64,000 nt of DNA from Macrostomum lignano (GCA_002269645.1 NIVC01001075.1:186001-250000); one strand, 5' to 3'; positions 27,725 to 64,000 are shown, counted from the first letter of the stretch. Made by a program: numbers and translations. Notes: a model not told the origin generated them from the letters alone.

Positions 27725-28012
27725 CCGAAAATTCTTCAACGATCCAAAGTAGATGGGTATAAAAGCCAGCCACACAATGCACGTTGAATACATGGTAAAC
27801 GCGATGTATTTCGCTTCGTTGAAGTTCTCCGGAATGTTCCTGGTCTTGAACGCGTAGATGGTGCACAGTGCAATGAGGATCATGTTGTACAGCAGGGATA
27901 CAATAATGGACGCGTCGTCCACAGCGCAGCGCAGCACCTTGTGGTCCCGGTCGGGATAGTCCAGCCGCGTCCTGGGCAGCTCCATTCCCAGCCAGGTGAT
28001 GTCTCCGATCAC
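27725..28012 (-). CDS. GRM: mGluR exon 6 (TM4 end to TM6)
   Basis: 288 nt, gttcag|GTG...CGG|gtatga; contains KTRNIPENFNEAKYIAFTMYSTCIVWLAFIPIYFGS, the class C ICL3/TM6 signature. Confidence 0.96.
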
Positions 28013-28223
28013 CTGAACAGGAAGGCGTTTCATGAGCTCGGAACTTCAATATCTTCAAAAAGTCTTGATACCTTCATAGTCACTTTCGCTGGCTTGAAGG
28101 GTGACTAAGGGGATACAAGTGGAGAATAGAGGCCGGAAGACACACACAAAAGACTTTACCTACACAGAGACCAGACATACAAGTGGAGAGTAGAGGCCGG
28201 AAGGCACACACAAAAGACTTCAC

Positions 28224-29212: not shown

Positions 29213-29286
29213 CTGCGAATGCGTGGTTCACAGAGAGGCCGCTTGGACTTGTTTTAGATGGGTCTACAGCAAATCTACAGTCCATA

Positions 29287-29400
29287 ACCCTAACCTCGAA
29301 GCCCTAACCCTTAACTCGAACCCCTAACCCTAAACTCGAACCCCTAACCCTAAACTCGAACCCCTAACCCTAACCTCGAACCCCTAACCCTAACCTCCAA
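29287..29400. repeat. ~20-bp repeat containing telomere-type CCCTAA (CCCCTAACCCTAAACTCGAA)n
   Basis: About 5-6 units inside mGluR intron 4. Confidence 0.85.
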
Positions 29401-31182
29401 TCGTCAGCAGTCAATTGCTGGCGATTTAATAACGGCATCCCGTTTTGGAAATACTCTAAGACTATTTGAAACCAAGTAGGCTTATAGATCTTTGACGAGG
29501 CTTATAAGAGATGGCCTCTAGCTTCAAGGTACCCAGCTATATTAATAATTCAATCTGTTGAAAATTAGGTCCGCTATAAATATACCTAGTAGATATGCAA
29601 GGTTCAAGGTAAAGTACATCCTATTCATCGCTAAACCTAGCGCACTCCCTTCCTGAGTACTTGGTTGCCTATCTGTCACTTTCCCTTTCCTGATGTCTTT
29701 GTGAGAGGCGCTCAAACGGCAAGAACGCTCTGGCGACATGGTCATTCAGGTTTGACGCAAATATTCTCAATGGTAAACTAAGTAAGCCCCCCTCATTGAA
29801 TCATTATTAACTCGCGCATCAAAGCTTTGAGACTCAGCCAAATCGCTCTTTGTGAGCGAACTGAAGCACACGATCTCTCAGGCTCTTTCTGTACTCCCCG
29901 TGTTTCTTGCTTAATGGGCTTTCATAGTAAACCCTTTCAGTTCAAAGCTCGCAGAGTGTACAAGGAACCAAATCTCTGTGCAGTCCTCTGTACGCACTGA
30001 GATGCAGGTATTGAATTCACTTCTTCTCCGATGATAATTTTATCATGTCACTTCCCGTTGAGGCTAATATTAATGAATTCCAATCCTCCTGAGCGCTGAT
30101 AATAGTACGGAGTTCAACTATTCTTCATGACGAATGAAGTTTATTTTTTATCCAAGCCAACCAAGCTTTGAATCCCCCCCAGCTGGGGAGGGGCCTGGCG
30201 CATTAAAAATTCTCAAACCGGAAATGGAACTGCCTTCCCAATGAAGCGAAGAGACCACGGGTACGCTAAAGGGATTGAGTGCTTTTTTATTATAAAAATG
30301 CAAATTAACGTCGCACAGGCTCAACAACTAAAACTCCCAGCCTCTCGCTCAAATGGCGGCGCTGGAAATCAACTTCAAAACACACACACACGCAATCTTT
30401 TCATCGGGGTTGAGGCAACATTGTTGAGTCTGTCAGCCGCGTGATACTCTAGTTGCCATGGTTACTTAGTTTGACGAGTTGTAAAAAAAACGATTTTTCC
30501 TCTCGCTCTGTCTGTCTCCTCTGATCAACCTTGGTCGTGTAAATAAGTAATACAATTTAGTGCTGTCTCGGCTCATAAATTATTCAGTGACCGGTGGTGC
30601 TGTTTGAGCCCTGGCAGGTTACTGATGCGCCTTATCGCTGTTCCAATGCGGTCTGTTTAGGTTTTGACTGCATCAGGCGCCTGATCCGCGTGCGCGGCCC
30701 CATTCATTTGGGACAAGCCAGCCCCAGGGCACAGAGGACAGTGTACATGCCTGACATCCAGTGTGAGCGTGTGTATGAGTGGCTGTGCCTGTGTACAGCA
30801 TTGGTGCGCTTGTGTGTGCCTAGGACCCAGCGAATGGGCAGAATTGCATCAGCGCTGATTGTGTGACAATGTCGAAGTCTCCCGCAATTATCATTACTTA
30901 ATCCCAAACAGTACACGAAAAGCACTATTAGAGGGTACAGAGTTGGATAGTACATGCATCACCAGCGATGTAAGTTAAGCATAGTTGGCTGTGGTTAGCA
31001 ATTAGGTGAATAGGATGTTTGCGTCACTGAGCGAGTGGTAGATGAAGCTGATCTCCGAGTCTACGCTGCTGCTCCCCACACAGATTCAGAGCTTTACAAG
31101 CCTAAAGGCCTCAATTGTACCATAAATCATTCTCCTTTTTCATGACTTATTTTCGCGGGCCAGACAGCCTCGTGCAACTCAC

Positions 31183-31308
31183 CTGAGCACCGGGGCCCGG
31201 GCTTGCTGGCTGACAGGCTGCACTTGAAGTGACTTTCCCAAAATTCTTCCCACCATGGATTTAGCGCCCGATGATCCAGGCTCAAACTTTTGAAGTAGTC
31301 GTCAAATC
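31183..31308 (-). CDS. GRM: mGluR exon 4
   Basis: 126 nt, phase 1/1; GFDDYFKSLSLDHRALNPWWEEFWESHFKC matches the mGluR NPWFxEFW motif. Confidence 0.96.
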
Positions 31309-31895
31309 CTGTCAAAATGAACGTCGAAGATAAATGAATTTAATACCTGGTACTAGACCTAAGGCATTAAAAAATCTGCTTTATAATAATTTCTTTCAGT
31401 TCGGAAGAACCTGCATAGGGAAATGGAGAGAGTAAGGACTAAAAGTCATCCCAGTTGATGATGACAATATGCATCTGTACTGATCGGATTGGTAAAAGCT
31501 TGATCAATGTTTTCAGCTAAGCTTAGCTTTTTGCTAATGCGATTTCTGTTTACACACTGAGCCATCGAATTTCCACAGGGGGGCAGCTCTCGCGCCTAAA
31601 GCTCCCGTCTGCAGGTTCGCAAAGTAAAACTTTCTAAAAGCTTACTTTTAAATGGAATTCGATTTTATGCATCTTTCCCTTCATCCATGCTCTGCTTAAC
31701 TATAGATCCTGCATGTATGTTCTACAATAGCATTCACGCCTCCTTTCCGTGTACTCTTTTGTAGCTAATTACTGTAATACTGTATACAGGATCAGCCAGT
31801 CCACAATAGACCCTTAATGCCCCCTCTTGCACTGCCAGTTGCTATGTGTACATGGTAGCATTACAAAATGACGCGGCGGGGGAGGGGTTAATCAC

Positions 31896-32192
31896 CGACA
31901 ACTGGACGCCTCTCTGGCAGCAGACTGATGGCTCCCTCGGCGATGTCTTCAACCCCAGCCAGGTGGTCCGTTTTGCGTCCCCAGCCGTCGCTGGCCACCC
32001 AGAATAGGCGCCGAGCCTCTCGCTGGTTCTCGCTCCGGCCGAGTAGCCAGAACAGCGTGCGCAGCGACTCGGCCTGGCAGAATGCAACGACAACTCGCGA
32101 CTTCTCCATGTTCAATAGGCTGGCGGCGATGTCTTCCAGGCTGCCGTTGCGATGGTTGCGCGGAATCAGATGCGTGCGACTGATGCAGATGC
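31896..32192 (-). CDS. GRM: mGluR exon 3
   Basis: 297 nt, phase 1/1; GICISRTHLIP...VVVAFCQAES...FWVASDGWG...AEGAISL. Confidence 0.95.
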
Positions 32193-32279
32193 CTGCGGGG
32201 AATTATGCGACGGGTGATGATGGCTCAATTGGTTCGATAAATCAGAGCCTTTTTAAACCCTTCCAACGCTTACCTGGCA

Positions 32280-32636
32280 AACCCTCCAACTCCTACCCCG
32301 TCCGAACCCCCTACCCCCAACTCCTACCCCGTCCGAACCCCTACCCCCCAACTCCTACTCCGTACAAACCCATACCCCTCCAACTCCTACCCCGTACAAA
32401 CCCCTACCCTCCAACTCCTACCCCGTACAAACCCCTACCCTCCAACTCCTACCCCGTACAAACCCCTACCCCTCCAACTCCTACCCCGTACAAACCCCTA
32501 CCCCTCCAACTCCTACCCCGTACAAACCCCTACCCTCCAACTCCTACCCCGTACAAACCCCTACCCCTCCAACTCCTACCCCGTACAAACCCCTACCCCT
32601 CCAACTCCTACCCCGTACAAACCCCTTACCCCTCCA
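32280..32636. repeat. 31-32 bp minisatellite (CCCTCCAACTCCTACCCCGTACAAACCCCTA)n
   Basis: Tandem array inside mGluR intron 2. Confidence 0.96.
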
Positions 32637-32690
32637 GAGATCTCCGATAGTCCAACTGTAGGATTGTATCCACCAATCTTCCCAACTCAC

Positions 32691-32907
32691 CCAACTCGTT
32701 GGCGTGGCTTTTAAACTCCTGGAAGCCTCGCTCGCCGTAGGTGCCCTCGTCGTACAGAGCGGCCACGTAGTTCCAGCCCATCTGCTTCACAATATCCGCC
32801 ATGGCCTTCGCCTGGCGCGTGTCCGACGGTACAACTCGGAAAAAGAAATCAAAACGACTGTTGTCGCTGAGTTCCGGACTGGTTGACGCGTAGCTGATCT
32901 GCGGGAT
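32691..32907 (-). CDS. GRM: mGluR exon 2
   Basis: 217 nt; IPQISYASTSPELSDNSRFDFFFRVVPSD...GWNYV...EGTYGE. Confidence 0.97.
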
Positions 32908-33790
32908 CTGCGGGAGGGGATAAACTCTGTGCACTGCAACGCTTGCGATAATCGAGAGTTATAGTCAATAACCGATAAAGTGCTCTCAAAAGAAGCTGCA
33001 GGATTAGCGCAAAGCCAGGCCTGCTCAGCTTATCGAAGAAATTCAGAAGTTCGCCAGGTTCGAAGTGCACCTACTTGGCGCACCTGAGCCTTAGCTGATT
33101 ATTTTGAAAGGGGAAAAACTGGGAGAGGAAAGCGTTCCAGAGCGTTCGATAATCCCAAAATTGGGATGGGATCTTCTTCGCGTCCAAGCAGTTCTGATGG
33201 AGGGTTAAATATTGATTTGCTCGAATCGAAGGTTCGACTCCTGAACTCCAGGTTCGCAGGCATGACTACAGAGAGTGAGTAGCACTTTGGGGCTCCTTTC
33301 TCCTCTCCCATTATTCTACTAAAATGAAAATCGTTTTTTAATTTTGATTTTTGCATCAAGTGCCATTAAAATTCATTTTTTGCTGAACAATCGACTCTAA
33401 AAGGCAATTTTCATTAACTTGTTACTTATTGCTTTGTTTACAATGCTTTTTCTGTCTGGGATACGCAATGCACTGTTAGGTCATCTGATATTTACTGACT
33501 AATTGTTTTCAACGAACTGATTATTTTAATGAGTGACGCAAAAAAACCGAATCAAAGCCAAGGGGAAGTCAAAAACATGGCAACGGAAATCTTCAAAGCC
33601 AATTTTTCAGGCTTCTGGTTCGCTGATCAAAAACTGAGGTATGAGATTGCGAAATCCTGTTGAAAGCAGTGCGGACAGCAGCAACTCCCCACTGCTCTCC
33701 TTTGGCAAAGCTTTTCTGCTTGTTCGCCTGAAGGCTTGACGACAGGAAAAATGAGAGATCCGAAAGAATGGGGAGACATGAAGAGAGACT

Positions 33791-34287
<497 letters not shown>

Positions 34288-34317
34288 TCTACCCGAAATC
34301 AGTAACCCAAGCCGCAC

Positions 34318-34851
34318 CTTGAACAGCCGCAGAATGTTGGCAATCATGATGCTCACTGAAGAATCCGCCGCCCCGATCACCCCCGCCACTGGTTGCCGGA
34401 TTTTCCCTCGGCCGCCGCCGCCACCGCCGCCGCCTTGACAACGAAGCTCGCCGCTGCCCATGCTCAAACCGTCAAGGCTGCTCAGCCTGTCGGCCACGAA
34501 GTCCATGCTCTGCTCAAGCGCGTGGGTGTCCCTGGCGCAGGTGTCGAACAGCCTGGCACCCAGCCGGAGCCGCGGCATCGGGCCTCGGCCGGAGTTGGCC
34601 AGCCGGAGCGCGTATACCATCGCTTCGAGTCGTTGAACTCCCCGATTCTCGCTAATCTGCCCGCAGCCTCTCGGCGAGGCCTTTTCGTGCACCGGGAACA
34701 GGCCGCCCAGTGCAATGTCGCCTGGCAGGGCCAGACTGGCCAACTGGCACGGGACTGGCGCCAGGTGGAGCACCAGTGCGAGCGTCACAGTTCGATGCAG
34801 TTTCGATGCTGGCATGCTGAACAGCTGCAGACTTAAACTCAGTAGCCGCAT
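34318..34851 (-). CDS. GRM: mGluR exon 1 (signal peptide and Venus flytrap start); whole CDS about 981 aa
   Basis: LPGDIALGGLFPVH, GVQRLEAM, LFDTC, GVIGAADSSVSIMIANILRLFK|gtgcgg. The start may be ATG 34851 or 34815. All seven exons join in frame (2946 nt). Confidence 0.95.
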
Positions 34852-35129
34852 AGCCTAGAATTTTATATAAGACAAGCTAAACTTTGTTGACCTTGGCATT
34901 CTATTGGCCCAATGAGGCAGTCGGAATTCTCCATATGATGCCCAGCAGGAGCTGGCAATATTGGTTCAATACACTGGAGAGTATCTGATTCGCTTGTGCA
35001 GTTGTAAGGAGGAGGGATTAACTCCTGCGGCAGATTTTCAAAAAGAAGTTCAAAATACTACTATCTATAGTAGCATTCTTAGAAATCTGTCCTTGAAAAA
35101 TACAGAAAGTTGGCAAAAATAGTGGATAC

Positions 35130-36894: not shown

Positions 36895-37452
36895 TAAGAG
36901 ATTGATAGAGAGTTTAAGAGATTGATAGAGTGTTTGAGAGATTGATAGAGAGTTTGAGAGATTGATAGAGTGTTTGAGAGATTGATAGAGAGTTTGAGAG
37001 ATTGATAGAGAGTTTGAGAGATTGATAGAGAGTTTGAGAGATTGATAGAGAGTTTGAGAGATTGATAGAGAGTTTGAGAGATTGATAGAGAGTTTGAGAG
37101 ATTGATAGAGAGTTTGAGAGATTGATAGAGAGTTTGAGAGATTGATAGAGAGTTCGAGAGATTGATAGAGAGTTTGAGAGATTGATAGAGAGTTCGAGAG
37201 ATTTAAAGAGAGTTTGAGAGATTGATAGAGAGTTTGAGAGATTGATAGAGAGTTTGAGAGATTGATAGAGAGTTCGAGAGATTGATAGAGAGTTCGAGAG
37301 ATTGATAGAGAGTTTGAGAGATTGATAGAGAGTTCGAGAGATTGATAGAGAGTTTGAGAGATTGATAGAGAGTTCGAGAGATTTAAAGAGAGTGTGAGAT
37401 ATTGATAGAGAGTTTGAGAGATTGATAGAGTTTGAGAGATTGATAGAGCGTT
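36895..37452 (+). repeat. 20-bp satellite (GAGATTGATAGAGAGTTTGA)n, left flank of the Maverick
   Basis: About 28 units, ending in the variant ...GATAGAGCGTT that abuts the element. Confidence 0.97.
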
Positions 37453-37909
37453 ATACCATACAAAATCACCAGCAATCCATGGCCAGCAACCAAACTAATT
37501 TTAATGTTGTTAAGGTAAAATTATAAATTTTTCGCTTCATTTTCGCTCGTCTTCACTTCGCTCAACTCGCTCCGCTCATCCTCGTTTCATTTCGGTAAAA
37601 ATGTATAATTTTACCTTAACAACATCAAAATTACCTTTTGTTTCTGAAATTTCGCTCTCGTCGTTCGCTTGTGGTTTGCTGGTGATTTTGTATGCTTCCA
37701 ATACTTCCAACACTTCCAACACTTCTAACACTTCCAAACAATTCCAACACTTCCAACACTTCAAACACTTCTAATACTTCCAACACAACCAACACCAACT
37801 AACTGATAATAAACCTCACCCGCCCGTGCCGCAGGCACGCGGACGAAGTCCGACCGCCCCGAAGGGGCTTGGGGCACAGAAAAGCATGATTTTTCTGTTA
37901 GTAAAAATA
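37453..37909 (+). repeat. Maverick terminal repeat copy 1 (~457 bp)
   Basis: Aligns by eye with 49291-49794 along its whole length; lacks the first 9 nt (AGTAGTATT). Confidence 0.9.
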
Positions 37910-37986
37910 AACCGAGTTTACAACTTTTCAGTAAGTGATACTTCGAAACTGTTGCTAAAAATGCTGAGATAATAAAACAGCATATA

Positions 37987-38394
37987 TTGAATGGAATAAT
38001 CGATGAGGTTTTTTTAAAATACAACAACGGCGAGGAACTAAAACTTTATCCACTAGAGTTAGACGGTTTATATGATTTAGAACAGGAGGGAGAGCTAATT
38101 TTTCAACTTGGTGATTATTTAAATTCAGACGATTGGGAGGTTCGTTCAACGGATTCTGAGTCAACAAATAGTTCGTTTGAAACTAGTGAATGAAGTGAAT
38201 AGAGAATGAAAGTGAAATTTTTATGTAAAAAAATGGAATTAGGCAGCAGACCCCACTTTTCAATAACTGAATCAACTCAAACAATATTTAATGCACTCGA
38301 TTCAATAAAAAAACTTATAAAGGATGAAATACTCGATGAAGTATATATATACAACCAAATAAAAAGATATATCCACTTGAAATTGGAGAATTAG
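37987..38394 (+). CDS. two small hypothetical viral ORFs (68 aa acidic; 62 aa, probably frameshift-truncated)
   Basis: ORFs 37987-38193 and 38206-38394 inside the element; no recognisable motif. Confidence 0.4.
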
Positions 38395-38678
38395 ATTATA
38401 TTTGGGATAAGGGGGAAGAAAGTCTTCTTCTAGCACAATGTTTAAACTGTTAAAAATTATAACTAAAAATCACCCCGATGAATTACTATTCAGTGACAAA
38501 AACAAATTTATTGCGAAAAATATAAGTAAAAAATGAACTTAAATTATTCCTACATTGGCAAAGTGCCAATTAAAGATTTTCAAGATAATGTTAGTTTGAT
38601 AGCAGTTGAACAAGTTACAATAATATTTTTAGTTCTAGTATTAATAATAATATTGTTTTTATTTGTTATAATTTTTTA

Positions 38679-38930
38679 TTACCTTGTTGCCTTAAGTAAT
38701 TGATTCTTATAAAACGATCCTAATATTTCTTCAAGTAAAACATCTAATATGGTTAAAATATACTTATACCCTCCGTCGTTCGGCATAGCCATTAAATCAG
38801 CATACCAAATTTCATTCTTTTTAAAGTCCATGATTTTTCGATAAAATTTAGATTTTCGGTATTCTCTATGAAGATTTTTGCCTCATCAGAACTTAACCCA
38901 CCACCACTTAATACTCGTAACAAACATTCA
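38679..38930 (-). pseudogene. int: Maverick retroviral-like (rve) integrase, internally deleted
   Basis: Reads LHREYRKSKFYRKIMDFKKNEIWYADLMAMPNDGGYKYILTILDV, then directly LLEEILGSFYKNQLLK*. These match the N-core (WQADL..M...GYKYILTVIDV) and C-terminal (GE.I.GSFY..EL) motifs of Maverick integrases. Confidence 0.8.
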
Positions 38931-38959
38931 ACACAATTATTTCCATGTTGATTGTAATT

Positions 38960-40314
38960 AATTCCTAAACCAAATTTAACTTTAGATTGCAGAATCTTAT
39001 TAACGATGCACCGAGTTAATCTTTGGCCAACCGGGTTACATGGGTTATATACCAGAAACGATGGAACCGCTCTTACAGCTCCCGATATCGCCGATCGTTC
39101 AGGTATTGTTATAGAAAATGATTGGTTTTATAAATGTTTTTCCCAAGCGCAACTAAGAATTGATGGAGCCGAGGTTGAGACATCTAGCAATCCCGAGGAG
39201 ATTAATGGAGTTTTGAAACATTTAAATTATACCTATTTAACAAAACAGGTTGGTGACAATGTTGGATGGATGCCAGATAAGGGTGATGGTGGAGCAATTA
39301 ATTTCTCTCAAGTACCACCGGCAGCCGGAGCCGATACGGCAGCACTCATTAACTATCTGAATACGAATATAGTTCCAGTTGTAACTACTCTAACCAACCC
39401 TAAAAACATGAACACCGGATTCATAGATCGTCAGAATAAATTCCCAGTAGCAGTTTTAACCGATGCAGCCGCATATGAGCAGGACTTTTAAATCTTCCCA
39501 TTATTAGGTTTCTTCTCACCAAATCGTGTTTGGAAAGGATTAAGATTTGGTGTACAATTGAAAATATTTGGCGGGTATCTGGGCAGAATACTTTTTGGAA
39601 ATTCAACCTCAACCGATTTAGCAGCTAGAATAGTTTCAATTCAATTAGTTTTCCCAACGATTGAGGTAACAGCTCCACTTATCTCTTATAAACGATCAGT
39701 TAATGAAGGATCAGGAAATGTTCTATTTGAATCGTCGGCACTTTATGCGAACTATAAATAAAATCAGGATTCATTCCAGAGGCAAATTCTCACATCAAAA
39801 CGTCGCGTGAGATATATTTTTGCTTGGTTTAAAATCACAAACAGAACTAGCAAAAGAGCTAATGGAGATTTATATTGGATTCAATCTGATGCAGTAGCAG
39901 TTCAAGCCGCCACCGAAACTGACACCGCAGCCTTAGCAACTACCGCATTTAATCTCCAGAATATTCGCTTGCAGGTTGATCCTGTAGGATATTATCCTGT
40001 AAAGATGCCCTTAATCTAAACATGGCTAATAATGACGTTAATGATTTGATAAAATATTATCAGGATTATGCCAAAAACGAGGTGTATGCAGTACCACAAT
40101 ATACTCCCACAGAGTTTCTAAACATTCATCATTTTGGTTTCTAAACATTCATCTAACTGCAAAAAAAGAAAATGTAGCCAATATTGGTTTGAATTATATG
40201 TTAGAGATTAATAAAACCGGAAATCAGGCGGTTGACGCACATGTTTTGTTTCTCGAGGAGTATTTGTCAATTGCTGGCGCCGATGGAACAATTATTCAGG
40301 ACACCCCGCTGTAG
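38960..40314 (+). pseudogene. major capsid protein (double jelly-roll, Maverick/PLV type), frameshifted
   Basis: ORF pieces 39006-39491, 39558-39761, 39807-40019 and a tail to TAG 40314. Motifs: DGT...END.F..CFSQAQLRIDGAEVE, G.N.GW.PD, RVRYIFAWF, NLQNIRLQV...YYP. Capsid call from recalled motif pattern and gene context. Confidence 0.75.
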
Positions 40315-40399
40315 GCGGTGCAGGACATAGTCCGTCGCGCCATTGTAAATGTCGCAGTTCTCCGAACGTCGCACCAATGTAAATTTTTTTTCCTAAAAA

Positions 40400-51306: not shown

Positions 51307-54300
51307 ATGGAACAAAGATTAACCCCAAATCAGATTCGACAACTACTTGCTAATGAGCGCGCACAGTTCAATCGATTACAAAGACAGATTGAACAAATCG
51401 AAATGCGCCAAAGAAACTTAGAAAGACAAAGACGAGATGAAGAAATACAAGCATTAGCAACTAATTTAAGAGCCGAATATGAAATGAAAAGATTAATAGA
51501 AAATGCACAATATGAAGCAAGAATAGCAGAGTTAGAAAAAAATCAAAAGAAAACCAGACGTCGAAAACCACGGAATCAATCACCTGAAAAATCACTAGAA
51601 GAGTTTATTCGAGTATATCGGTTTGAGCCAATGGAGAATGTATTAGATTTTATTGAAACACAACTCTCAAACGGATATAGTGTTGAAAATACTAATGCGA
51701 GAGTCCAATATTTCTATCGCAATAGCGGAGACGATCGAGAAGAAATTAATCAATACTTAGCAACGTTTTATAATATAAATCAGTTTCAAGCTTGGTTTAA
51801 ACATTTGGTTGAAAACTATGACATGAATCTAAGCGTGTTTTCGGGAAGACTCAAAATGACACCAAACATAATCACATTGAAACACGAAAGATCAAAGCAA
51901 GGTATGGGCACCAACGTCATGTGTGAAATTGCAGAGTACCAAGACGATTATTGTTATATACCTAGTGATGGAAATTGTTTCTATAAGTGTGTTCAATTTA
52001 TTTATGGTGATAACGCACCATCCAAAGAAGAATATGGAGCTTGGTTGTACGACTCAAGAACCCAAAGAGGTTTAATGACAAATTCAAGAATTGGAAAATT
52101 CAACGAACATTTTAATTTGAACATAGGTTTATATAATCCAAATAATCGCGGCATCGAACCAAAATCCCAAAGGCAAATAAAACACGATTGGTTATTGATA
52201 AATTATTATCACACGACAGATTATCATATTGGCCACTACTGTTTAATATCCAATTAACAAAGAGGAATCGGCCTCGAACGCATAAAAGAAAATTATAAAG
52301 TAACATTCAAAAACTCAACATCGGAAACAGTTAAAGAGATAAAAACGTTTAATACTCCAACAAATCCAAATAATGCTAATGTATTTATATTTGATTTTGA
52401 AACATATTTAAATGATAATCAACAAGCATGCCCCTATGCAGTTGGTCTTTCAAATTATTAAATCTTTTTTCAAAATTCCAACGAAAGCACAGAGACAATA
52501 AAGGCACTAACTAAGGTTTTGATTTCCGATCGAGGGTGTGATTTCAAAACAGATGGAGAGGGTTCGCAACCAAAGGTTGATTGCGTTAGAAAAATGTTTA
52601 AATACCTTGGTTCAATTATGTCAAAAAGATTGTTTTGATAGCACATAATTCATCTAGATTTGATTCATATATACCACTATTTTGCAATATAAAACCAACT
52701 AAATTCTTAAAACACCTAGAGGAATATTATCAATAACTTTAGTAAATGATTATACAACAAAAGAAGTATTATCGTTTATAAACAAAGATAAGAAGAAGAA
52801 TCAAAAGTATTCAAAACAAACAATTACAATGCTTTGTTTGTATCAACACGCATCAATGAGTTTAAAAAAAATTGTTCGTCAGTGACAATTAGAGAAGATT
52901 TGCGCAAGACCGAAATGGTTCATAATATTAGCGAGAGCGATTATTTAGAACGGATAGATGAATGGTATGAATATTTACAATTTGATCTTATTTCTCTATG
53001 TGCATGCATTCATAAGTATAATGAAATTGCATATTCAATTGGAGGAATGACAATGTTTGACACTCTTACATGTTCAAGTTTAACATTAAAATGTTGGTTT
53101 AAAGATTTTGTTAGAGTTGAAGACAAAATGAAGCAATACCTAAAGACAAAAGAAAAAACCAATTACATTAATAAAGTTGAACAAACAATTTCTCCGTTGA
53201 AAATTGAAGATTATTTTGACTTGACTTTTGAACTTGATACTTGAACTTGATATTTTGAAACATCAAAAAAGGAAATATCAAACTTTATTAAGAAAAGAAT
53301 TTTCAATTCACTCACACATAGACCCATATATAAGAAGGTTTTTGCGGGACGCAGTCAAAGGAGGCAGAGTATTTGCACTAACAAATAAATATGAATTAAA
53401 AGCGACTGTTTTCAAACAATTGTAGACATTGTAAAAGATCATTTAAAACACCAACCGCCGACCCATGCGAGGTTATATCAACCTATCTTAAATGTGATCT
53501 TAAATAAAAAAATAAAATAGCAATCAAACAAAAAATCAATTAGGTACGGTATCTGATTGTTTAATGAACTTTGATGGAGTTTCATTGTACCCATCTGCAA
53601 TGTCTGATAAAGATAGCGAATATCCAAGAGCAGAAAGTGCTAGAGTTTTTGATATAAGCGAAGAAAAAGATTCATTGGCACAATTGAACTCACAAACTTT
53701 TAGACCAAAAACAGAGGTTTTGAAGATTATGTATGAGAATCCTAACACTGTTTTTCTCCAACATCTACTATCTAAAGACAAAGAGAAATTTTATAATCCG
53801 GAAACAAAAGCAAATGAAAAAAAAACATTAAATAGATTTAGAAACGGAAAAGTAATTGACACCCTTTGCTCAGTAGACAGACAAGAAATTGTAAGAATGG
53901 GGGAAAGATATTAAAGATATATAGTGGAATCATGTATGAAAAAAATTACGACTTTTCGCTATTTCAGAATTATATTACAAATCTTTTTGAAATGCGTAAA
54001 ATATTTAAAAAAGTAAATAATGAGGCGGGTTCTGAATTATTAGAAACACTACTAAATTCTTTAAATGGTAAAACGGTTCAAAAGGCCATTACCTTCACAA
54101 CCCATCTTCGGAATTTGAATACCTTAAAAAAAGAATACGACGACACAATTAAGTCATATGAGAAAATATGTGATGACCTATTTTTTGTAGAAAAAAAGAA
54201 AGACACAGAAGAATATATAGAAGATGACGATAATCCAGCAATGGGTCTTTGCCCAGCACAATTAGGTATATTTATTTTGGCTCATTCAAGAAGAATTATG

Positions 54301-54898
54301 AATAATTTTATCACATAATTAACGGATCAAAGACTCCGCAAATTTATTATGGCGACACCGATTCTTTGTATATACACAAAAACATTGGGATACTTTGAAT
54401 ACAAATGGTCACGTCGGAAATAATTTAAGTCAAGGAAAAAACTACTATGGAGAAGGTGAAATTATTTTCAGATGTTTCATTGCCCCTAAAATTAAATATT
54501 GTCTTTTGTTGAAAGATGATTTTATAATGGAAGAGAAAAAACATATAAAGGTTGTGCAATGATAAAATTAATTTTGCATCTTTCAAAACTTTATATGATG
54601 GTCAATCAATAAAAGTAAATAATAATGCACCATGGAAACGATCGTTTGAAGGAGGGATAACAATTCCTCAAGGAGATAACGCAAGCATATAAAAAACATA
54701 TACGTCTACAGTTAACACATATAAAGAGAAAAACCTGATAAAAACGGCGTTATGAAACCTTTCTTTAAAAACTATTTTGACGACAAACCAGAACACGAAC
54801 AAACAATTGAATTTTATAATAATTTACTTTTTGACATCGATTATAATTGTTTTGAGTTGGATATTGATGAGCTAAACGCTATTACTTGTAAAAACTAG
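51307..54898 (+). pseudogene. polB: protein-primed family B DNA polymerase (terminal-protein region, vOTU, exonuclease, polymerase) with multiple stops/frameshifts
   Basis: vOTU IPSDGNCF (51958-51981) and GHY (52231); ExoI FDFET (~52390); ExoII AHNSSRFD (52641); ExoIII YLQFD; KGGRVF; motif A FDGVSLYPSAM (~53570); motif B LLNSLNGK (~54050); motif C YYGDTDSL (54345). Confidence 0.95.
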
Positions 54899-55439
54899 TC
54901 GAACAAAGTTCCCATGCCCATCAGGCATGTTATTTTTAAAAAAACAAAACATGTTATTCCTTAAGTAGAATATCCATTTCAATTTCATATTTAATGGAAC
55001 ACTAATTTTCCTCACAGTCAGAAGGATAACTTAAATATTCTTTTATTTTTTTCTAGGTATTTTTATTCTTTTTACAAGTCGATCTATTTCGTTTTCAATG
55101 ATCATTTCAGCATAATTAATGGCAGATTTAAGAAAACGTTTTCTTTTACCAAATTCATATCGAACGCTAAATAAGTCTTCATCATTATTTTTTTCTATTT
55201 TGATTATAATTCATTGCATGTATTTTGTTTAATTTATTATTCGTGAGAACACCAAGTCTATGAGACTAGGAAATATTCAAAGCGAAATGTTATTGAAAAA
55301 GTCATTAGAATTTTTATGTATTGATAAAAAATTTAAACCTCGAATCAAAAGACAATTACCATTATGGGAGGAATATATAACTTATGCAATAAATAAATTA
55401 CGGAATGTACAGTTCGACCGTTGAAGAAGTTGTTGGTTG

Positions 55440-55694
55440 TTAAACAGGCTGGTCGTCCCGAAGGGTCGCGTCTATAGTTTCTATTGGCGGAGGTTTGGGG
55501 ACGTCCAAACGCAATTCTGTCAATTCCATATCAGTAAAAGATTCAACATCCAAAATTCTATTTCTTTCATCTAAATACTTTTTATATAATTCAATGGCGG
55601 TTGGTAATTCATGTATTGTAATATCACTATCATCTAAAAAATTTTGAACATATAAATATAATTGATTTTTATATTGATTTGCAATGTTTCTCAA
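55440..55694 (-). CDS. hypothetical viral ORF, 84 aa
   Basis: Open frame inside the element; no motif recognised. Confidence 0.35.
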   Translation of the reverse strand: MRNIANQYKNQLYLYVQNFLDDSDITIHELPTAIELYKKYLDERNRILDVESFTDMELTELRLDVPKPPPIETIDATLRDDQPV

Positions 55695-56511
55695 AGATTT
55701 ATATTTTTCCTTTTTAAGATATAATTTGATAGCTAAAAGAATTGAAAGAAATTAAAATTGTAAATTGTAATTGTTAATTATAAATTGTTAATTGTAAATT
55801 AAAATTGTAAATTAAAAGAAATTTCTTATTAATTCAAAACTCGATATTGAACCAATTGCAATACCTAAAAATAATTGAGAGATACTAAGGATTGGAATCG
55901 ATTGAATTATACCCAAAACAATTACACATAACATTGATAAGCTTCCAAAACCAATATTAAAAAAAATCTATATTCCTAATATGATTTGAAATTCTAATTA
56001 CTTTTTTGTATATAAATCATAATCGCTAGTTATTCTTTTTACATTGCTTCTCATGCGCCCTTTACGTTGGTTAAATAAATCGCGTTCCTTTTTATCCGCT
56101 TCAGACACCGACATTGTCGTCTATTTTTAATAGCACCAAAATGAATTCCCCACGCTCTTTAGGAATTTGTCCAGAACTCAATAGATATTGGATTGGAGTA
56201 ATTCTTTCTTTTTTCTCCCATTTAAATGTAATCTTCCAAAATTCTTGAAGTATAATATGATTTTTTAACTAATTCTAATTTAGTTAAACTAATTTTTCTA
56301 ACTAACTAATTTCTCTAACTAATTTTTTAACTAATTTTTTTTAATTAATTCTTGAAGTCTCTTATTGTCTTAAACATTCACACCACTAAATAAAATTCTA
56401 GTATGAGATTTAAAAGTTTTTATATTTGATTCTTGTTTTGGAACCGGAATAACAATATTGTTCTGTCTAATTGATGAAGTTCTGCTAAAACCATTTTATA
56501 TACCAACATTT

Positions 56512-59259
56512 TTATATAGCTACAGGTGGCTCTTCAAGATATGCGCTAGCAGCAAAATTACATCCAGCAGATGTGCTACCACAAACGGCGGCGCAGCGAA
56601 TAAAATGTGCAGCATCCGCTCCTCCGGTTCTTGCTCCAAATCCCATAAGAGTTCCAGTTTTATCCAACTCTCCCCAATTTCCACTATCATATGTAAAAAA
56701 AAATTTGCCCAATTGGCGTATATGCTTTAGTTGAAACATTGAATGTGCTTAATTGATACCAAACTCTTTGATTTAAAATATTAATTTCAAATAGATGCCT
56801 ATCTCCATTATCAATATTAGCGTAGGTTACTGTTTGATCGGAGTCATTAAGAACATCAGCACGCGAGGATCCATCTGCTTTTTTAGAACTCCAAAGTAAG
56901 TCAAATCTATCATGCCACTCACTCGCAAATACAATTAATCCAGCATCAGTTGTTAATCCAGCCCCACTTTCAGTTGTTGGCCGTTCATGACAATATGCAT
57001 AAAACCAAACTGCGTCCGCTCCTGTTCCTGAGTGTCACGTTTTTGTAGTCGTTGTAGTCCCAAATTAATGGTGAAGTCAAACTCTTGCGGAGTGGGTTGT
57101 GTAGCGGAAGCACTTGGCGTATGATGGCAGAGGACTGCCGTAAACCGTTTATTGTCGTTATCAATATGGTTAATGTCAATACAAGAGTTATAGCGTTCTG
57201 GGGCACTGGCGGCTGCAACAACGGGTCGATGTAATTGAAGTTATGAAGTCAAGCAGATGATGGAGGATGATGGTGAAGCAAAGTAGCAAGTGATGGTGCT
57301 GAGTACGGTGGTGGCAGTGAGTAGCAAGTAGGCAAGTAGTGGCGTGATTGGGCGCTAGCCCGTGGCAGTACAAGGTGGAGCACGAATGCGTAAACAAGTC
57401 TGGCCCAGACAGGGTGGGGCCGTGGCGAGAGATAAGGAGAGACAAGCGAGAGGGAAAGAAGGAAAGGAAGGAAGGAGGAGGAGGAGCAAAACCCCCCAAC
57501 CCGCCGCCAGGCGGGGTTAATAAAGGAGCGCAGGAAGGTTAGCATAATAAATGCGGAGAGTTTTCATTGGCTGGCGGGGGAAAAGCGAGAACTGAAATTA
57601 TTGATCGCGCGAGACCCTACAGACGTACGCAAAGATTACCATGTACGCAATGATTAGCAATTGATACAGATTCGTTGGGCGCTACTACAAGTAAATGTGA
57701 GAATACACGATTGGAGAATATTAAATGAGAAATTGCAGTGAAATTGTAGTCCAACGGCCCTTTTGCGGGACCACCTTAAACTGACAACGTCACACTGAGG
57801 AATTAGCAACTTTGAAAAAGAATGATTCAGCAATATTTTTAAAATGTGTGAAATTAAATTGTAATGCCCCACTTACACCACCGGTTTTACGAGTAATTCT
57901 AGCTCCATTTTGATAATCAATATAAGAAGCATCTCCAATAAAAGACCCCGTTGGAAAAATATCACCAGCAGTTGTTGGATTTTGGTAACCAGTCCAATTA
58001 CAAATTACGGCTTCATATAACGCGGCATCAATCGCGGGAATACCATCCAATTAAATTTTATCATTAAAAGACATTATTCAATCTGCTGTTTGTGTTACGC
58101 GCGTATCTACATAATCTTTATTAACAACCGATCTGTTGTGATTTATAACTGAGATATTTGTAAGTGTATTACCACCCATGTCAATAGATTGATTAACTAC
58201 TCCTAAATTCAAATCAATAACTGTAAAAGTCTGTCGATAAATTTGGAATGTAAAAAGACCTGGATTTGTAGCACCTGAGGTTGAAGTATGACAAAATAAT
58301 CTGAAATATAAATATTCTTTATCAAAATTTTGAGTCACATTAAATGTTTGAGTTGAATTATTTAATGCAGTATTTTCCATTGGATTTAAAATATCCCAAC
58401 TTGTATTGTCATTACTCACTTCAAATCTCCACGACGCGGGGTTTTCGGTTGAGGGTGATGGCCTAACACACAAGTCAATCTTATAACACATTATCGCGGA
58501 TGGACATTGAACTTTAATCCAATAATCAGTTTGTGTTGCAGCAGTTGCCCAATCCGTTGCATCATCGCCATCAAACGCTTTCCAACTTGCAAAGGTGCTT
58601 GCAAGCATTAAATGCCGTGCTTGCTGTAATCGCAAAACCATTTCCACTCCAATCTGACATTGTTGGTATATGTCCAGTTTCAACAGTTTGGAATATATTT
58701 TGTTTAGGGTTTCCACCATTTAATAAATTATCAACTTCTGTTTTAGTATAGGAATCAGCAATGTTTATTTTTAAATTTAATGAATTATCAACTTCTGTTT
58801 TTGTATAGGAATCAGCAATATTTCTTTTTAAATTTAATGAATTATCAACTTCTGTTTTAGTATAGGAATCAGCAATATTTCTTTTTAAATTTAAGGAATT
58901 ATCTATTTGCGTTCGAGAATAGGAATCGGTTATATCTCTTTTTAAATTCAAGGAATTATCTATTTCAGTTCGAGAATAAGAATCAGTTATATCTCTTTTT
59001 AAATTAACAGCAGAATCAACTTCAGCTTGACTGTAAGAATCTAATATATTGCATTTTAAATTTAATGAATCATCAATTTGAGTTTGGTTAATTTGGGTTT
59101 TAGTATATGAATCTGCTATATTCCGTTTTAAATTTAATTTAGTATCTATTTCACTTTTTTATACCTTTCATGGAAAGCAAACGAAACATTAATGCCAGTT
59201 GATTCCCCACCACCAGTTCTTGCAGTTCCATTCCATGAGGGTGTTCCAGTAACTAACAT
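56512..59259 (-). pseudogene. putative fibre/receptor-binding protein: 19-aa YTKTEVDNSLNLKRNIADS repeats, F5/8-type-C (discoidin)-like domain, MGG.TLTN...KDYVD motif, L-type-lectin-like domain
   Basis: 57-bp repeats at 58720-59150; WKAFDG...WAT...WIKV...SWRFEVSND..SW (ORF 58078-58719); ARITRKTG...FFFKV..SSGTGADAVWF...IDNGDRH after removing the solo LTR. May be two adjacent genes. Confidence 0.7.
57033..57794. mobile_element. solo LTR, 762 bp, 5-bp TSD CTGAG
   Basis: CTGAG|TGTCACG...CGTCACA|CTGAG. Removing it restores ANSS-GTGADAVWF in the lectin-like frame. Confidence 0.88.
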
Positions 59260-59284
59260 TTTTAGAGTCTATTTTTACAATTTT

Positions 59285-60108
59285 AAAATGAATCTAAAAT
59301 CTTCTTAAAAGCTTCGGGTGATTGAGTTAGCGATTTCAGTGCTGGGGTACTGGCGCTGTAATCGCGTTTAGCTGACAGGGCGGTCGCCTTTGTGCGTGCT
59401 TGCGCGGGCTGTTCTTTGTGCCGGCGTGTGGGGGGTGGGGGTGCGCAGGGTGTTGGGGCGGTTGGCTTTTTGGCGGTTGGCCTTTTATGTGCGTGCGCGA
59501 TGTTCTGTTCAGCGCATTTGCCCTCGCAATTTTTTTTCTGCTTTTCCTTGCTTTTTCTTTTATCCTATGATTTTGGTTCTCCTGTTTTACTCAGCAATTG
59601 TGTTTCTCTTAAGCTTCGATACTATCGAAATATACTTGTAATTGCTAGCGGGCTCGCTTCGCCTGCCCTTCGTCGTCCTCGCCACCCCCGCGCCTTCCGT
59701 CTTTGTCCTGTTAGCTAATTAGAATTATTAATTCGATACCAAAAAATACAGCGCCGCCTGTCCACAATAACTTGTATCAAAGGTTTGAAACTGTTCGTGA
59801 TAATCTCCACAAAAAACGATTTTTGGTATGATTAAATTTGTCTTTTATTTCCTGCAATGGAGGTAATGCATACGAATAAAAAATATAACAAGTTTTGGTT
59901 TTGAATAAACTGCTGACCAATGTACGCCGTTTTCTTTAGTCGTTTCAATATTGACAATGAATGATCCAAATTGTGGTAAATCTTTTATTTTATCGCGCAT
60001 AACACATCTGAATGGTTTTATTTTTAATTGACGCGCCCAATTTGTTAATTCTATATTATTTGTTGTGCCGGTTCCATATCTTTGTTTGAAAGTATTCCAA
60101 TCGGTCAT
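59285..60108 (-). pseudogene. adenain-like cysteine protease, interrupted by a solo LTR
   Basis: FIVNIE...GVHWSAV (catalytic His), F(D)SY.LPP, FQTFDTSYCG (Gln and catalytic Cys); frameshifted. Confidence 0.88.
59357..59750. mobile_element. solo LTR, 394 bp, 4-bp TSD GCGC
   Basis: GCGC|TGTAATC...AAATACA|GCGC; a GC-rich island in the AT-rich adenain gene. Confidence 0.85.
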
Positions 60109-60292
60109 TTTATGTTGCCGAAAAACTTTTTGTTTTTGGTAAGTTTATTAGTTGGCGGTTTTAATAGTTCCTTTCTGGTTTTTTCTGCTTGAAGCTGTCA
60201 TAATTTGGTTAATCCCGTTTCATAAATATTATTTGCTTTTTGAACTGTTTCTGTTTGTTTTTTTATATTATTATTGCCCATTTTTAACCTAA

Positions 60293-61078
60293 TTAAACTT
60301 GTTTTATTCTTAAAATTATTGTTATTGCTTGACCGCCAAAACTAGTTAATCTATCTGAATCATCTACAACTCGTATATAAATAGATTGTAAATGATATTG
60401 ATTCAAAGGATAATAAATTGGGGTTTGGGGTGCAACTATCATTTTATCTCCAATTGGCACCGCCAGAAAGGGAATTGAATAAATGATTCCACACTGAACC
60501 AAAAATCCATTATCGTCCGTTATATATCCACCGTTTGAAATATCCGTGGTAATATTTATTGTATTAACTCCGCCTTCAATGTTTCCTACGGTATCACCCG
60601 TGCTTGACGTGGTAACAATTCTTGAATTAAATCCTAAAATAGTTCTAAATGAATTTGCAATTGTAAAATAAACTTGATATCCTGCCGCTAATGTCAATGT
60701 GAATCTTCCTGATGGTAAATCAACTCCTATAACAATTGCATCCGTTACCTAATCTCCATTTGCTGTTAAATCGGTCTGTATTACAGTGTTCAAATCAGTA
60801 TAATTATATGCTCCTGGAGTTATGGTAATTGTTGTCCAATTTGCTTCAGAATCTTTAGAATATCTAAATTGATTATTTGTTGCATTAATTAATTGTGGTA
60901 TATTGAAAACTGAAAACATAATTAAACCAACTTGATAACTTAAACTTTGATCTAGACTTAATGGATCACGCAATTGAATCCTTTGCTCGCTGGTTGTCAT
61001 TACAAATTGTAATGTCGGGCTAAATTTTGAACTGGTTCTATCAACCAGTTGTTTTATTGTGTCTAAGTTTGCTGCCAT
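60293..61078 (-). pseudogene. minor capsid protein (penton, single jelly-roll), one in-frame stop
   Basis: ITITPGAYNYTDLNTVI, TILGF, P..PIYYPL...SIYIRVVDD..RL..FGGQAITIILRI match the Maverick/PLV penton pattern; ORFs 60749-61078 and 60293-60697 share a frame. Confidence 0.85.
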
Positions 61079-61093
61079 TTTATAGTGTTAAAA

Positions 61094-61639
61094 TCAGTCC
61101 TCTTCCTCTTCGTTATCTTCTTTTATTAGTTTTGTTATAATTCTATTTCTACTTTCTAATCTTGGGTTAATAAACATATGTTTGTACCGACTTTCTTCCC
61201 AAATGTTTCTACACATATTTTTGAATGATTTTGAATCCAATCCGGGATTAAATCTCCTTTGAATATTTTGTAAATCATAATCATCTAAATCAAACATTAC
61301 ACAACAACTTGCATTCTTTTTTTATAATTGTATCTAATTCTCTAAATGATTGAGTAAGGAAAAATGCGCCAATTCCATCTCCTCTACCGCTAACAAAATT
61401 TCTTTTTGCAATTCTTGATTACCATCATTATCACAATCATCAAATACAATAAGTGTTTTATCATCTTTTGGAATTTGATCATATATTTGTTTTTTGATAT
61501 TTGAATTGTTGGGGCGTTGTTGGCAATGTTTTCTGGATGTTGGGCGGTTGTTCTAACCAAATCCTTTATGTCATTAAGTGTGAATCGCGGTTCATCATCA
61601 TCCTCATATTGCTCATATGATCTTCTAAACGAGATATAT
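61094..61639 (-). pseudogene. packaging ATPase, C-terminal half
   Basis: ISFRRSYEQ...KTLIVFDD (Walker B), FVSGRGDGIGAFFLTQSF...IKKNA (A32 motif), HMFINP. Confidence 0.9.
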
Positions 61640-64000
61640 TGTTGTAACCCGTCTCTAGCTCCTTGACGAAATTTACATGCGAATCGACAGGCTGTGGCGG
61701 CTGGTCAGTCAAGTCTATCGGTAGGCGCATCTCCGTGCCATAGACCATGTAGTGGGGAGTATAACCCGTTGCTCGATGCACGCTTGATCGGTACGCCATT
61801 AACGCAGAGCTGACAAATTCTTCCCAGTCGTTTCGTCCTGAGTCCTCTAGGCAGCACTTGAGGATGGATTTTAAACTTTTATTGAAGTTTTCTACTTGTC
61901 CATTTCCGCTCGGATGATAAGCTGTGGTTCTGGACTTGCGGATCTCGAGTATCCTGCACATTTCGCGCATCACTTGCGATTCGAAGTTCCTTCCTTGGTC
62001 ACTGTGCAAAGTACTCGGACATCCATGCTGGCTAATCCATCGATTGAAAAGCGCCCTTGCCACCGTCCTTGCCTTCTGGTTGCGAAGCGGGTACGCGTCA
62101 GGCCACTTCGTAAACGAATCTTGGACTGTCAGGAGATAAATGTTTCCAGCCTTACTCCGCGGTAGCGGCCCGACAATGTCCATCATGACGCAATCGAATG
62201 GTGCTGCGAATGTCAACGGTTGCAGGGGTGCTCGGTTTCGCTTGCCCGGCTTTGACTTGCAGCAGGTGGCACAACCGCGAATATATTCTTCAATGGCACG
62301 AGACAATCCTGGACGCCAGTAGCGCTGAAGCACTTTAAATTTTGTCTTCGCAAAGCCCATGTGGCCACCTCCCACTCCCTCGTGTAGGGTTTTCAAGATA
62401 CGATCCAATGCCTTTCGTGGCAGCACCATTTGATACTCATCGCGCCTGTCTTTGTTTCTCACAAGGAGCACGTTCTCTTGCAGCACCAGGTCGTCTTTTC
62501 GAGTCCAGACGGCTCTAGCCAGTGGACTCCAAGCTGTCTCGCTTTTATCTGGAACTGGGTTTGAGCCAAGCGCTTCCTTTACTGTTCTCAAATCGTCGTT
62601 TTGATCCTGCTCGCTTGCCAGATTGCCGGCTGAGAATCGTTCAAATTCGACTGCATTTAGTCCTTCTGGATGCTGCGCACATGCCGGGCATGTCTCCGCT
62701 CCGAAATGTCTCCGTACTGGCTTCCTCGACATTGCGTCCGCGTTGCCATGCGATCGACCTGGTCTGTGAACGATGCGGTACTGAAATGGAGCCAACTTCT
62801 CCAACCAGCGAGCAACCTGTCCCTCGGCGTCACTGAAGTTTTTTAACCATTGCAGGCTGCTGTGGTCCGTTCGCAGACAGAACGCTTTTCCCAGCAGATA
62901 GTATCTGAATTTCATGATGAAAGTCACAACCGCTAGTAGTTCTAAACGAGTCGTACAATAGTTGCGTTCGGCTTGATTTAGTGTCTTGGACCCATAGGCG
63001 ATCACTCGTTCTGCTCCATCTGGCTGGACTTGAGAAAGTACCGCTCCTATGCCCATCTTCGAACTGCCATCAGTATCGAGGATAAACTCTCCGGCATCCG
63101 GGGAGAAATCCGGATGAGCCATAACCTCTGAACTTGTCATTCGTTCCTTCAATGTTTCGAACGCCAGCTGCTGTTCCGTTTTCCATTCAAACTTTGCGTC
63201 TTTTGTTGTCAACCGAGTTAGAGGCGCTGCTATTGCGGCGAAATCTTTAATAAACTTTCTGTAATAGCCACACAGGCCCAAGAATGAATGCAGCTCCTTT
63301 GAGGATCGCGGTGTTGGCCAGTTCTTCACTTCTTGAACTTTCTCCTCATCGGTACTGATGCCAGCAGCCGACAGCGTGTGACCGAGAAATTTCACTTGCT
63401 TTTGCAAAAAGTGACACTTCTGGGGCTTCAGGCACAAATTTGCTTGCCGCAACTTGCTGAATATTTCCTCCAGTCTTCTCAGGTGTTCATCCACGTCGGT
63501 TGACCAAACCAGTAGATCGTCGATGTAGACGAGACAGGTTTTCCACATCTGCTTGTCCAAAACGGCTGCCATCAACCTGGTGAATGTTGCTGGGCTGTTC
63601 ACTAAGCCGAACGGCATAACCTTCCATCGAAATTGTCCGCGATGCGGCACTGCAAACGCCGTCTTGTCCTGATCCTGAGGTCTCACCCCTACTTGCCAAA
63701 ACCCGCTGTGAAGGTCCATTGTCGAGAAGATCTTGGCGCCGTGTACTGCCTCCAGCGCATCATCGACCCTCGGCATCGGCACTGCATCCTTGACGGTGAC
63801 CTCATTCAACTTCCGATAATCGACGCACATCCTCATTTCCCCTGATTTCTTCTTTACGCACACCAAAGGAAAGCACCATGGTGACTGTGCTTCTTCGATC
63901 TGCCCCTTTTCCAGCAACTCGTTGACTTGACGATCTACTTCTGGCTGTAAGTGGGGAGGCAGACGACGCGGTGGGATCTTGATTGGGCGCGCATTCTCGG
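61640..64000 (-). mobile_element. pol: Ty3/Gypsy LTR retrotransposon pol (RT-RNaseH-IN), open frame, 3' end truncated, continues off the window
   Basis: SPWCFPLVCVKKK, RMCVDYRKLN, YIDD, DTDGS...GAVLSQ, HHCC zinc finger, MDIVGP, SDQGRNFES, GNGQVENFN; RT-RH-IN order. Confidence 0.97.

Follow-up and report, generated by a model that had tools for sequence, protein, structure and literature searches.

A decayed Maverick/Polinton, split by a gypsy element and partly inverted, in the flatworm Macrostomum lignano

Introduction

How does the gene set of a large virus-like DNA element come to lie in two pieces, with terminal repeats that point the same way, and what does such a relic tell us about the family it belongs to? 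These questions are raised by a stretch of 64,000 nucleotides of the Macrostomum lignano genome (the window hereafter, G000:C1075:186001-250000; coordinates are those of the window unless a contig is named), in which an initial annotation had placed a near-complete endogenous Maverick/adintovirus-like virus at 37453-61639. Our answer is that the locus holds a single Maverick/Polinton, decayed and broken into two halves (37453-40615 and 49282-61639), and we put at roughly 0.85 the probability that this element was split and partly inverted, likely by recombination between opposed gypsy retrotransposons, and that it is an old member of a multiplied family likely to spread by means of a particle stage.

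One insertion in two halves

The two halves sum to 15,515 bp, or 14,353 bp once two inserts are subtracted, in agreement with the 15.5 and about 14 kb of the initial annotation, and together they cover a sister element from one end to the other, with 75-86% identity and a meeting point at the hexamer ATATAT. The interval first given for the element does contain both halves, but the 8.7 kb between them (40616-49281) are not Maverick and consist of a gypsy solo long terminal repeat (LTR), with a nested 2.7-kb repeat, and of host DNA. Genes of the window copy were mapped by tblastn with the natural open frames of sister copies, their breaks being left unrepaired. They were recovered at the positions first proposed, and the idea of a Polinton/Maverick gene set deriving from one old, inactivated insertion was borne out. 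The gene order that had been reconstructed equals that of the 17.5-kb sister copies, but it is true of the window only after the inversion described below is undone. 'Near-complete' was an overstatement: about 3.5 of some 17.5 kb have been lost and all the long core genes are broken by stops, frame shifts or interruption. Compared with sister elements of 17.4-17.5 kb, the missing DNA corresponds to three deletions, (i) one of about 2.1 kb that took the 5' end of the capsid gene, two open reading frames (ORFs) and the start of the integrase gene, (ii) one of 0.65 kb that took the integrase core and (iii) one of 0.8 kb.

The ends of the element carry the evidence for a single insertion. Self-comparison of the region yields one long repeat pair (37451-37909 and 49289-49794, both on the + strand), which corresponds to a left terminal repeat (37453-37909, +), whose first 9 nt, including the AGTAGT end, are absent, and to a second terminal repeat (49282-49794, +) that has its AGTAGT end at 49282. 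The pair proposed at the outset, one member of which was said to have the AGTAGT terminus, is hence present, but it is direct as placed, not inverted. These repeats, 11.8 kb apart, differ at 16 of 420 aligned bases (3.8%) and both adjoin the same 20-bp host minisatellite, in opposite orientations. On the left, the array that served as insertion target (36897-37452, +) ends in the hexamer AGCGTT (37447-37452). On the right, AACGCT stands immediately before the repeat (49276-49281) and reads AGCGTT on the - strand. Within the 556-bp array on the left, this hexamer is confined to a single site, the junction itself; the right array, of 175 bp, contains two. The AGCGTT pair represents a 6-bp target duplication left by a single insertion, the right part of which was later turned round. 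That there was one insertion follows from the presence of the same hexamer at both ends and from complementary halves meeting at ATATAT, while the terminal repeats read as direct because a 17.4-kb block is inverted.

Direct repeats 11.8 kb apart might also be left by two unrelated half-elements that inserted near each other by chance, a scenario we regard as scarcely credible. It is contradicted by the two shared duplications (the hexamer at both ends and ATATAT), by complementary halves that meet at one duplicated site and by the similarity of the window repeats, which are 96% alike whereas the other copies found match at 70-89% over part of the repeat. In the single-insertion history that we favour, an element with AGTAGT ends landed in the 20-bp minisatellite, where it lies between the two AGCGTT hexamers that its rve integrase presumably made, and subsequently decayed, as seen from the three deletions, the two inserts, and the stops and frame shifts of the window copy.

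A gypsy split and a recent inversion

The ATPase gene was split by a young gypsy that has ATATAT at each of its flanks (40610-40615 and 61634-61639). At the left inversion breakpoint, this gypsy is a solo LTR beginning with TGTAG (40616-44195, +), in which an interspersed repeat of 2.7 kb with many 97-100% identical copies is nested (40796-43524). The host DNA of the inverted block comes next (44196-49281, -), with a duplicated stretch, a gene for a Cys-rich protein, the remainder of the minisatellite and the right target duplication. At the right breakpoint lies a young gypsy deleted between integrase and LTR end (61640-64000, on to C1075:253814, -): the last 11 bases of its LTR (-) are joined straight to the gypsy integrase, followed by an open gypsy pol and, further out, by the 5' LTR at C1075:252947-253814.

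The locus is present in two further copies. In contig C3733, the left half is the same and is followed by a full-length gypsy of 9.8 kb (LTR identity 99.7-99.9% over 671 bp) and by the host flank known from the window; the left junctions of the window recur there across a full gypsy where the window has a solo LTR. In contig C420, the receptor gene, minisatellite, flank and downstream DNA are all in one orientation, with no Maverick match at E 1e-10 in 40 kb around the locus. A 195-bp host stretch (44201-44389) that is duplicated in inverted orientation at C1075:253815-254003 is single in C420. Since C420 is un-inverted and has this stretch only once, the 17.4 kb from 44196 to 61639 are inverted relative to C420. 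The event is recent, because the gypsy LTRs compared are 97-100% identical and at least 25 of the 40 scored gypsy matches are 100% identical. Flank divergence between the window and C420 is 2.0% and 3.2%, and the three copies of the locus fit the three subgenomes, about 2% apart, that have been described for M. lignano (PMC10733133; here and below, statements on earlier work refer to the accessible parts of the cited sources). Because the divergence of the terminal repeats (3.8%) exceeds that of these flanks, C420 may be an empty site or a copy from which the element has been lost.

The succession of events that best suits these structures is one in which a gypsy would have entered the ATPase gene, where ATATAT now flanks it at either end, and another copy the host flank, in which it lies in the opposite orientation. 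Crossing-over between the opposed copies, the simplest cause, would then have flipped 44196-61639, and the left gypsy would have been reduced to a solo LTR in C1075 while it is still full length in C3733. A single aberrant gypsy integration, or a staggered break, that duplicated gypsy and 195 bp of host DNA together could have produced the inversion in one step, which we judge unlikely but worth keeping in mind: the gypsy and the 195-bp stretch are found as inverted duplicates at both ends, as staggered breaks leave, and at one LTR end the final base is gone and 5 filler bases are present, yet all four junctions are at LTR ends and the duplication at the ATPase site is clean, as in ordinary integration. 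Far less probable is an assembly mis-join between opposed LTR copies, with halves that are in order on the chromosome. Both breakpoints do sit at near-identical LTRs, and a possible sign of chimeric contigs is the abrupt change in divergence between the window and C3733, from 1.2-2.4% up to 33.8 kb to 0-0.36% beyond 34.3 kb. Against this, the LTR stretch shared ahead of the nested insert is just 180 bp in the window, the same left adjacency is seen in two contigs of differing transposable element content and the inverted 195-bp duplication is single in C420. Recombination between two gypsy copies is therefore the course we prefer.

Several observations on these three copies stand on their own. 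The drop in divergence at about 33800-34300 may reflect a haplotype switch within one contig or an exchange between subgenome copies. C3733 has two extra inserts in its copy of the left half (C3733:58003-59254 and 59731-64368, L002); an 8-bp duplication and short inverted ends mark one of them, presumably hAT-like, and TC..CTAG ends the other, presumably Helitron-like. The minisatellite of C420 contains LINE-like and gypsy-like fragments (C420:367286-373948, L042), i.e. the array has been hit repeatedly.

A large, recently multiplied family

The window copy has many relatives in the same genome. A capsid probe gave 336 candidate matches in the assembly, of which 115 were scored (a lower bound): 61 of these are 97-100% identical over the probe and free of stops, and 62 have open frames of at least 490 aa. 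As numbers of insertions, these counts are inflated by triplicated loci and uncollapsed haplotypes. The genome search for sister copies that the initial annotation had suggested thus turned up 17.5-kb elements with open capsid genes. Pairwise identity among five full-length young copies is 94-99.5%, and their terminal inverted repeats (321 bp) have AGTAGT ends in all five and are 98.8-100% identical within a copy. Among seven sister copies whose ends could be paired, five have perfect and mutually different 6-bp duplications. Three short genes are unbroken in all five young full-length copies; the breaks seen in other genes of these copies may be assembly error or real decay. The window capsid ranks near the bottom of the family, with 75% identity, and its terminal branch is long and attaches close to the family base (an unstarred placement). 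No young copy of its subfamily was found, the best other DNA match to its penton-like gene being 87%. The family is large and recently multiplied, and the window copy is an old fossil member of it.

The substitution pattern of the capsid gene shows purifying selection. Twenty of the 115 loci were taken across the identity range, and the 17 with full open frames were used, three broken ones being excluded. In the resulting 136 pairs, with dS reaching at least 0.66, the ratio of non-synonymous to synonymous substitution rates (dN/dS) is about 0.13, with medians of 0.11-0.14 by dS class and a range of 0.06-0.20. It is 0.16-0.28 for the window capsid stretch.

Three further loci bear on the diversity of such elements in M. 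lignano. In one, two Mavericks of this family are nested, one lying inside the capsid gene of the other (C2140:94-17640, L007/L008). In a second (C1197:52687-53127, L054), the slot beside the integrase of an older copy is occupied by a nuclease-like ORF different from that of young copies, which makes this slot a variable gene position. The third (C986:330478-333936, L017) is the remnant of a second, different Maverick-like family with a similar start of the terminal repeat and another polymerase N-terminus, integrase and GG protein.

Capsid fold and lineage

The initial annotation had tied its reading to a jelly-roll capsid, and the major capsid protein of the family is predicted to have a double jelly-roll fold. 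For the major capsid, the condition under which that reading would have failed, the lack of any match to a jelly-roll capsid, did not arise. An AlphaFold model built from four sequences matches in Foldseek the capsids of Sputnik, an iridovirus, mavirus and PBCV-1 (E 9e-12 to 1e-9), and the top matches in the PDB and BFVD are double jelly-roll capsids only, at 7-15% identity. VIA Z scores are 11.8 with mavirus (root-mean-square deviation 19.7, 281 aligned) and 11.6 with PBCV-1 (root-mean-square deviation 3.7, 167 aligned). An Atlas search points in the same direction, and 29 of the 36 remote capsid hits scanned match PF21738 (double jelly roll-like).

By sequence, this capsid lineage is divergent, with few relatives and no named close one, consistent with the possibly undescribed lineage first suggested. 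HMMER was run against all 1.84 billion representatives, with 233 sequences hit at E 0.001 and 13 at 1e-30; three full-length environmental relatives (P0001-P0003), none named, share 41-50% identity. Beyond these and three fragments, identities do not exceed 27% (the next ones being 22-27%), and none of the 20 hit clusters looked up has an informative name. In a 44-row FastTree, the capsid and P0001-P0003 form one clade with a long stem (support 100, length 1.11). A shared-word profile search in which 8,000 near-length candidates were scored found the same three relatives, and comparison of the capsid alignment with metagenome and viral contigs gave 426 and 70 pattern matches, respectively, none of which was confirmed. 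The polymerase is in a similar position: after a 100% identical entry that NCBI labels as M. lignano come five unnamed environmental proteins (P0005-P0009) at 35-51% identity and a Lottia gigantea protein (P0010) at 47% over 44%, followed by a drop to 22-26% for the next polymerases.

Virus or transposon

Do these elements still make particles? If the family behaves as Polinton biology would lead one to expect, young copies would replicate by means of their protein-primed DNA polymerase (pPolB), have their DNA packaged by the A32 ATPase into capsids of the double jelly-roll type, which the protease would mature, and then attach through the fibre-like protein and re-integrate; the window copy is capable of none of these steps. 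Public sequencing runs offer only a hint that the family is transcribed. The young capsid gene is present in 20 of the 24 listed (eight studies), no run being recorded as RNA, and for four runs the contigs reach 29-30 of the 30 bins into which a 9.2-kb sister half was divided. Two of these four contain RNA, because their contigs bridge two introns of the receptor gene with canonical ends. Most intron bins of that gene are without cover in the four runs, which proves nothing alone, and no GT-AG joint is listed on the sister element in the run contigs.

A rival that has to be taken seriously, although we would not bet on it, accepts this anatomy but has the family multiply only inside the genome, as a self-synthesising transposon, with a capsid constraint that dates from an earlier viral phase. 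In its favour, the capsid dN/dS of 0.13 is modest, many young copies are broken and the runs show neither strand nor level. On the other side, dN/dS is already low in the closest pairs (median 0.11 at dS 0.05-0.15, six pairs), 62 of 115 capsid frames are open and the penton-like, ATPase, protease and fibre-like genes have all been retained. Spread by a particle stage is the alternative we prefer. The strongest version of it, a living, particle-forming DNA virus of M. lignano, from an unnamed polintovirus lineage whose capsid shares <30% identity with every sequence except a few unnamed ones, that still integrates and is transcribed in laboratory worms, is a tentative proposal, rather less likely than its negation.

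Weighing the evidence

Several findings weigh against the reading of the locus and family that we have put forward. At the locus, (i) the left AGTAGT end is missing and the left duplication is read beside a 9-nt gap, (ii) C3733 is near-identical to the window here (0-0.36%) and does not constitute independent support, (iii) the right breakpoint and right half are found in one contig only and (iv) the 195-bp duplication at the second gypsy site greatly exceeds the length of a normal target duplication, which suggests an irregular second integration and keeps the one-step model alive. As for the family, (i) two of the seven end-paired copies are without matching duplications, (ii) most long genes are unbroken in just one to four of the five young full-length copies, (iii) the capsid constraint (dN/dS 0.13) is far weaker than the 0.001 given for fish Mavericks (PMC8097293), (iv) the capsid model is mediocre, with a predicted local distance difference test (pLDDT) score of 51 and (v) the cover in run contigs could be DNA carry-over from a family of more than 100 copies.

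Genes of the window copy and its neighbourhood

In the left half, the terminal repeat is followed by a small ORF (37942-38169, +) that is 89% identical to a 104-aa sister ORF, by an integrase remnant (38742-39031, -) limited to residues 13-107 of 325, the core being deleted, and by the major capsid gene (39045-40311, +), which has lost its 5' end (the first ~69 codons) and contains stops and a frame shift. The 325-aa sister integrase matches PF00665 (rve integrase) at E 7.7e-7 and 29.8 bits, under the cut-off of 32.6, and the gypsy integrase at 1e-8. Next comes the 5' piece of the A32-type packaging ATPase gene (40400-40615, +; tblastn match 40400-40603), which comprises the first 68 codons of the gene, holds the Walker A motif and ends with ATATAT. 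The 3' piece (61121-61639, -) begins at the second ATATAT (61634-61639). Both pieces are thus in the window, and the sister protein matches PF04665 (A32 ATPase) above cut-off (E 8.4e-7).

In the right half, two genes for GG-motif core-like proteins (49802-51109, +), the second broken and with a weak match, below cut-off, to adenovirus pX (PF05829), precede the pPolB gene (51307-54874, +), which has many stops and frame shifts. PF03175 is matched above cut-off, at E 8.5e-8 by the window piece and 1.1e-18 by the 1206-aa sister protein, and Exo and Pol motifs are present. An OTU-like Cys/His stretch, with GNC at 236 and IGHY at 322, matches Peptidase_C65 under cut-off (E 0.027). Four small ORF remnants common to sister copies follow (54939-56615), then a fibre-like gene (56690-59259, -) encoding 19-aa repeats, an F5/8 type C (discoidin) domain above the Pfam cut-off and a further C-terminal domain. 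It is interrupted by an insert (57033-57794) with TG..CA ends and a 5-bp duplication, CTGAG. This insert fits one of the two solo LTRs first annotated; the other (59325-59719) is the terminal repeat of a reverse transcriptase-bearing element with split repeats, presumably Ngaro/DIRS-like.

The predicted adenain-type protease gene (59740-60099, -) and the predicted minor capsid, or penton, gene (60296-61078, -) have one stop each, and their identities rest on weaker evidence than those of pPolB, ATPase and capsid. Pfam gave no match for the capsid, penton-like or protease proteins, nor did a search of the PDB by sequence for the protease (best E 0.42), which is recognised only by His, Asp, Gln and Cys motifs at an adenain-like spacing. 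Atlas features link the penton-like protein (0.97) to unnamed Preplasmiviricota clusters, its structural model having a pLDDT of only 34.

The multi-exon mGluR (metabotropic glutamate receptor)-type gene (27052-34854, -; ANF_receptor, E 3.9e-11) has its ATG at 34849-34851, 2.6 kb from the Maverick, as had been proposed. This proximity looks incidental, and a regulatory link is unsupported: the receptor gene is spliced in two runs, the contigs of which are not assignable to one copy. Inside the inverted block, a host gene (46603-47043, -) is predicted to encode a secreted peptide with 16 Cys in 147 aa, which has no Pfam match and was detected nowhere but in the three copies of the locus.

Significance

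The fossil copy itself is ordinary, and most Maverick copies are fossils (PMC8097293). What is valuable is a young, abundant, divergent family with a constrained capsid in a culturable animal. According to the same source, animal Maverick particles had not been observed as of 2021, and comparable recent amplification has been reported in just 10 of 435 element-rich assemblies (10.1101/2025.04.19.649669). If the proposal of a living virus were true, animal Maverick virions could be purified from a cultured model animal. With dozens of near-identical copies, open and constrained capsid genes and a worm that is cultured, the question of particles becomes testable by purification alone. The capsid escapes Pfam and has few relatives, and profile-based surveys may overlook this lineage. 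In addition, the locus records base by base how nested retrotransposons inverted one copy in a recent polyploid.

Comparison with known systems

Repbase holds planarian Polintons. No named adintovirus (a group we take to be the Eupolintoviridae) is among the capsid or pPolB sequence hits, and the capsid is 11-12% identical to adintovirus and MELD models in BFVD. A description of the family was not found in the open literature searched; the tables of 10.1101/2025.04.19.649669 and 10.1101/2023.08.22.554363, the latter a survey of 7,897 assemblies, may list it. In these and in PMC11131425, recent Maverick expansions, and insertions in flatworms, are treated in a general way, and the one supplement file of PMC8502044 consulted has no Macrostomum, Lottia or Schmidtea.

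Virophages provide the best solved capsid folds (Sputnik and mavirus), yet at 10-13% identity and on a par with the capsids of iridovirus and PBCV-1. A pPolB and an rve integrase are likewise known from mavirus (PMC11071308, PMC6431247). Unlike virophages, the present family has a full exonuclease-bearing pPolB and, unlike Polinton-like viruses, which have a tyrosine recombinase or Tlr1-type helicase instead, it combines this polymerase with an rve integrase. No helicase or tyrosine recombinase family was detected among the 18 sister proteins scanned. Parallels also exist with adintoviruses (Alpha and Beta, PMC8502044), which are likewise animal-associated and have a pPolB, a fibre-like gene and an integrase; the OTU-like N-terminal stretch of pPolB, the predicted protease and the pX-like GG proteins are candidate further parallels. 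The OTU-like stretch agrees with published descriptions of polinton pPolB (PMC11071308, PMC8502044), and the Pfam scans gave no PLA2X or gasdermin match.

For Polintons/Mavericks, we follow the criteria of Kapitonov and Jurka as quoted in PMC8097293 (see also PMC6431247). The family differs from them in that its capsid and penton-like proteins miss all Pfam models, and the window copy in being split and inverted. The likeness extends to (i) (AGT)2 ends, terminal inverted repeats and a 6-bp target duplication, (ii) pPolB, rve integrase, A32 ATPase and a capsid predicted to be a double jelly-roll and (iii) a layout in two gene modules over about 17.5 kb.

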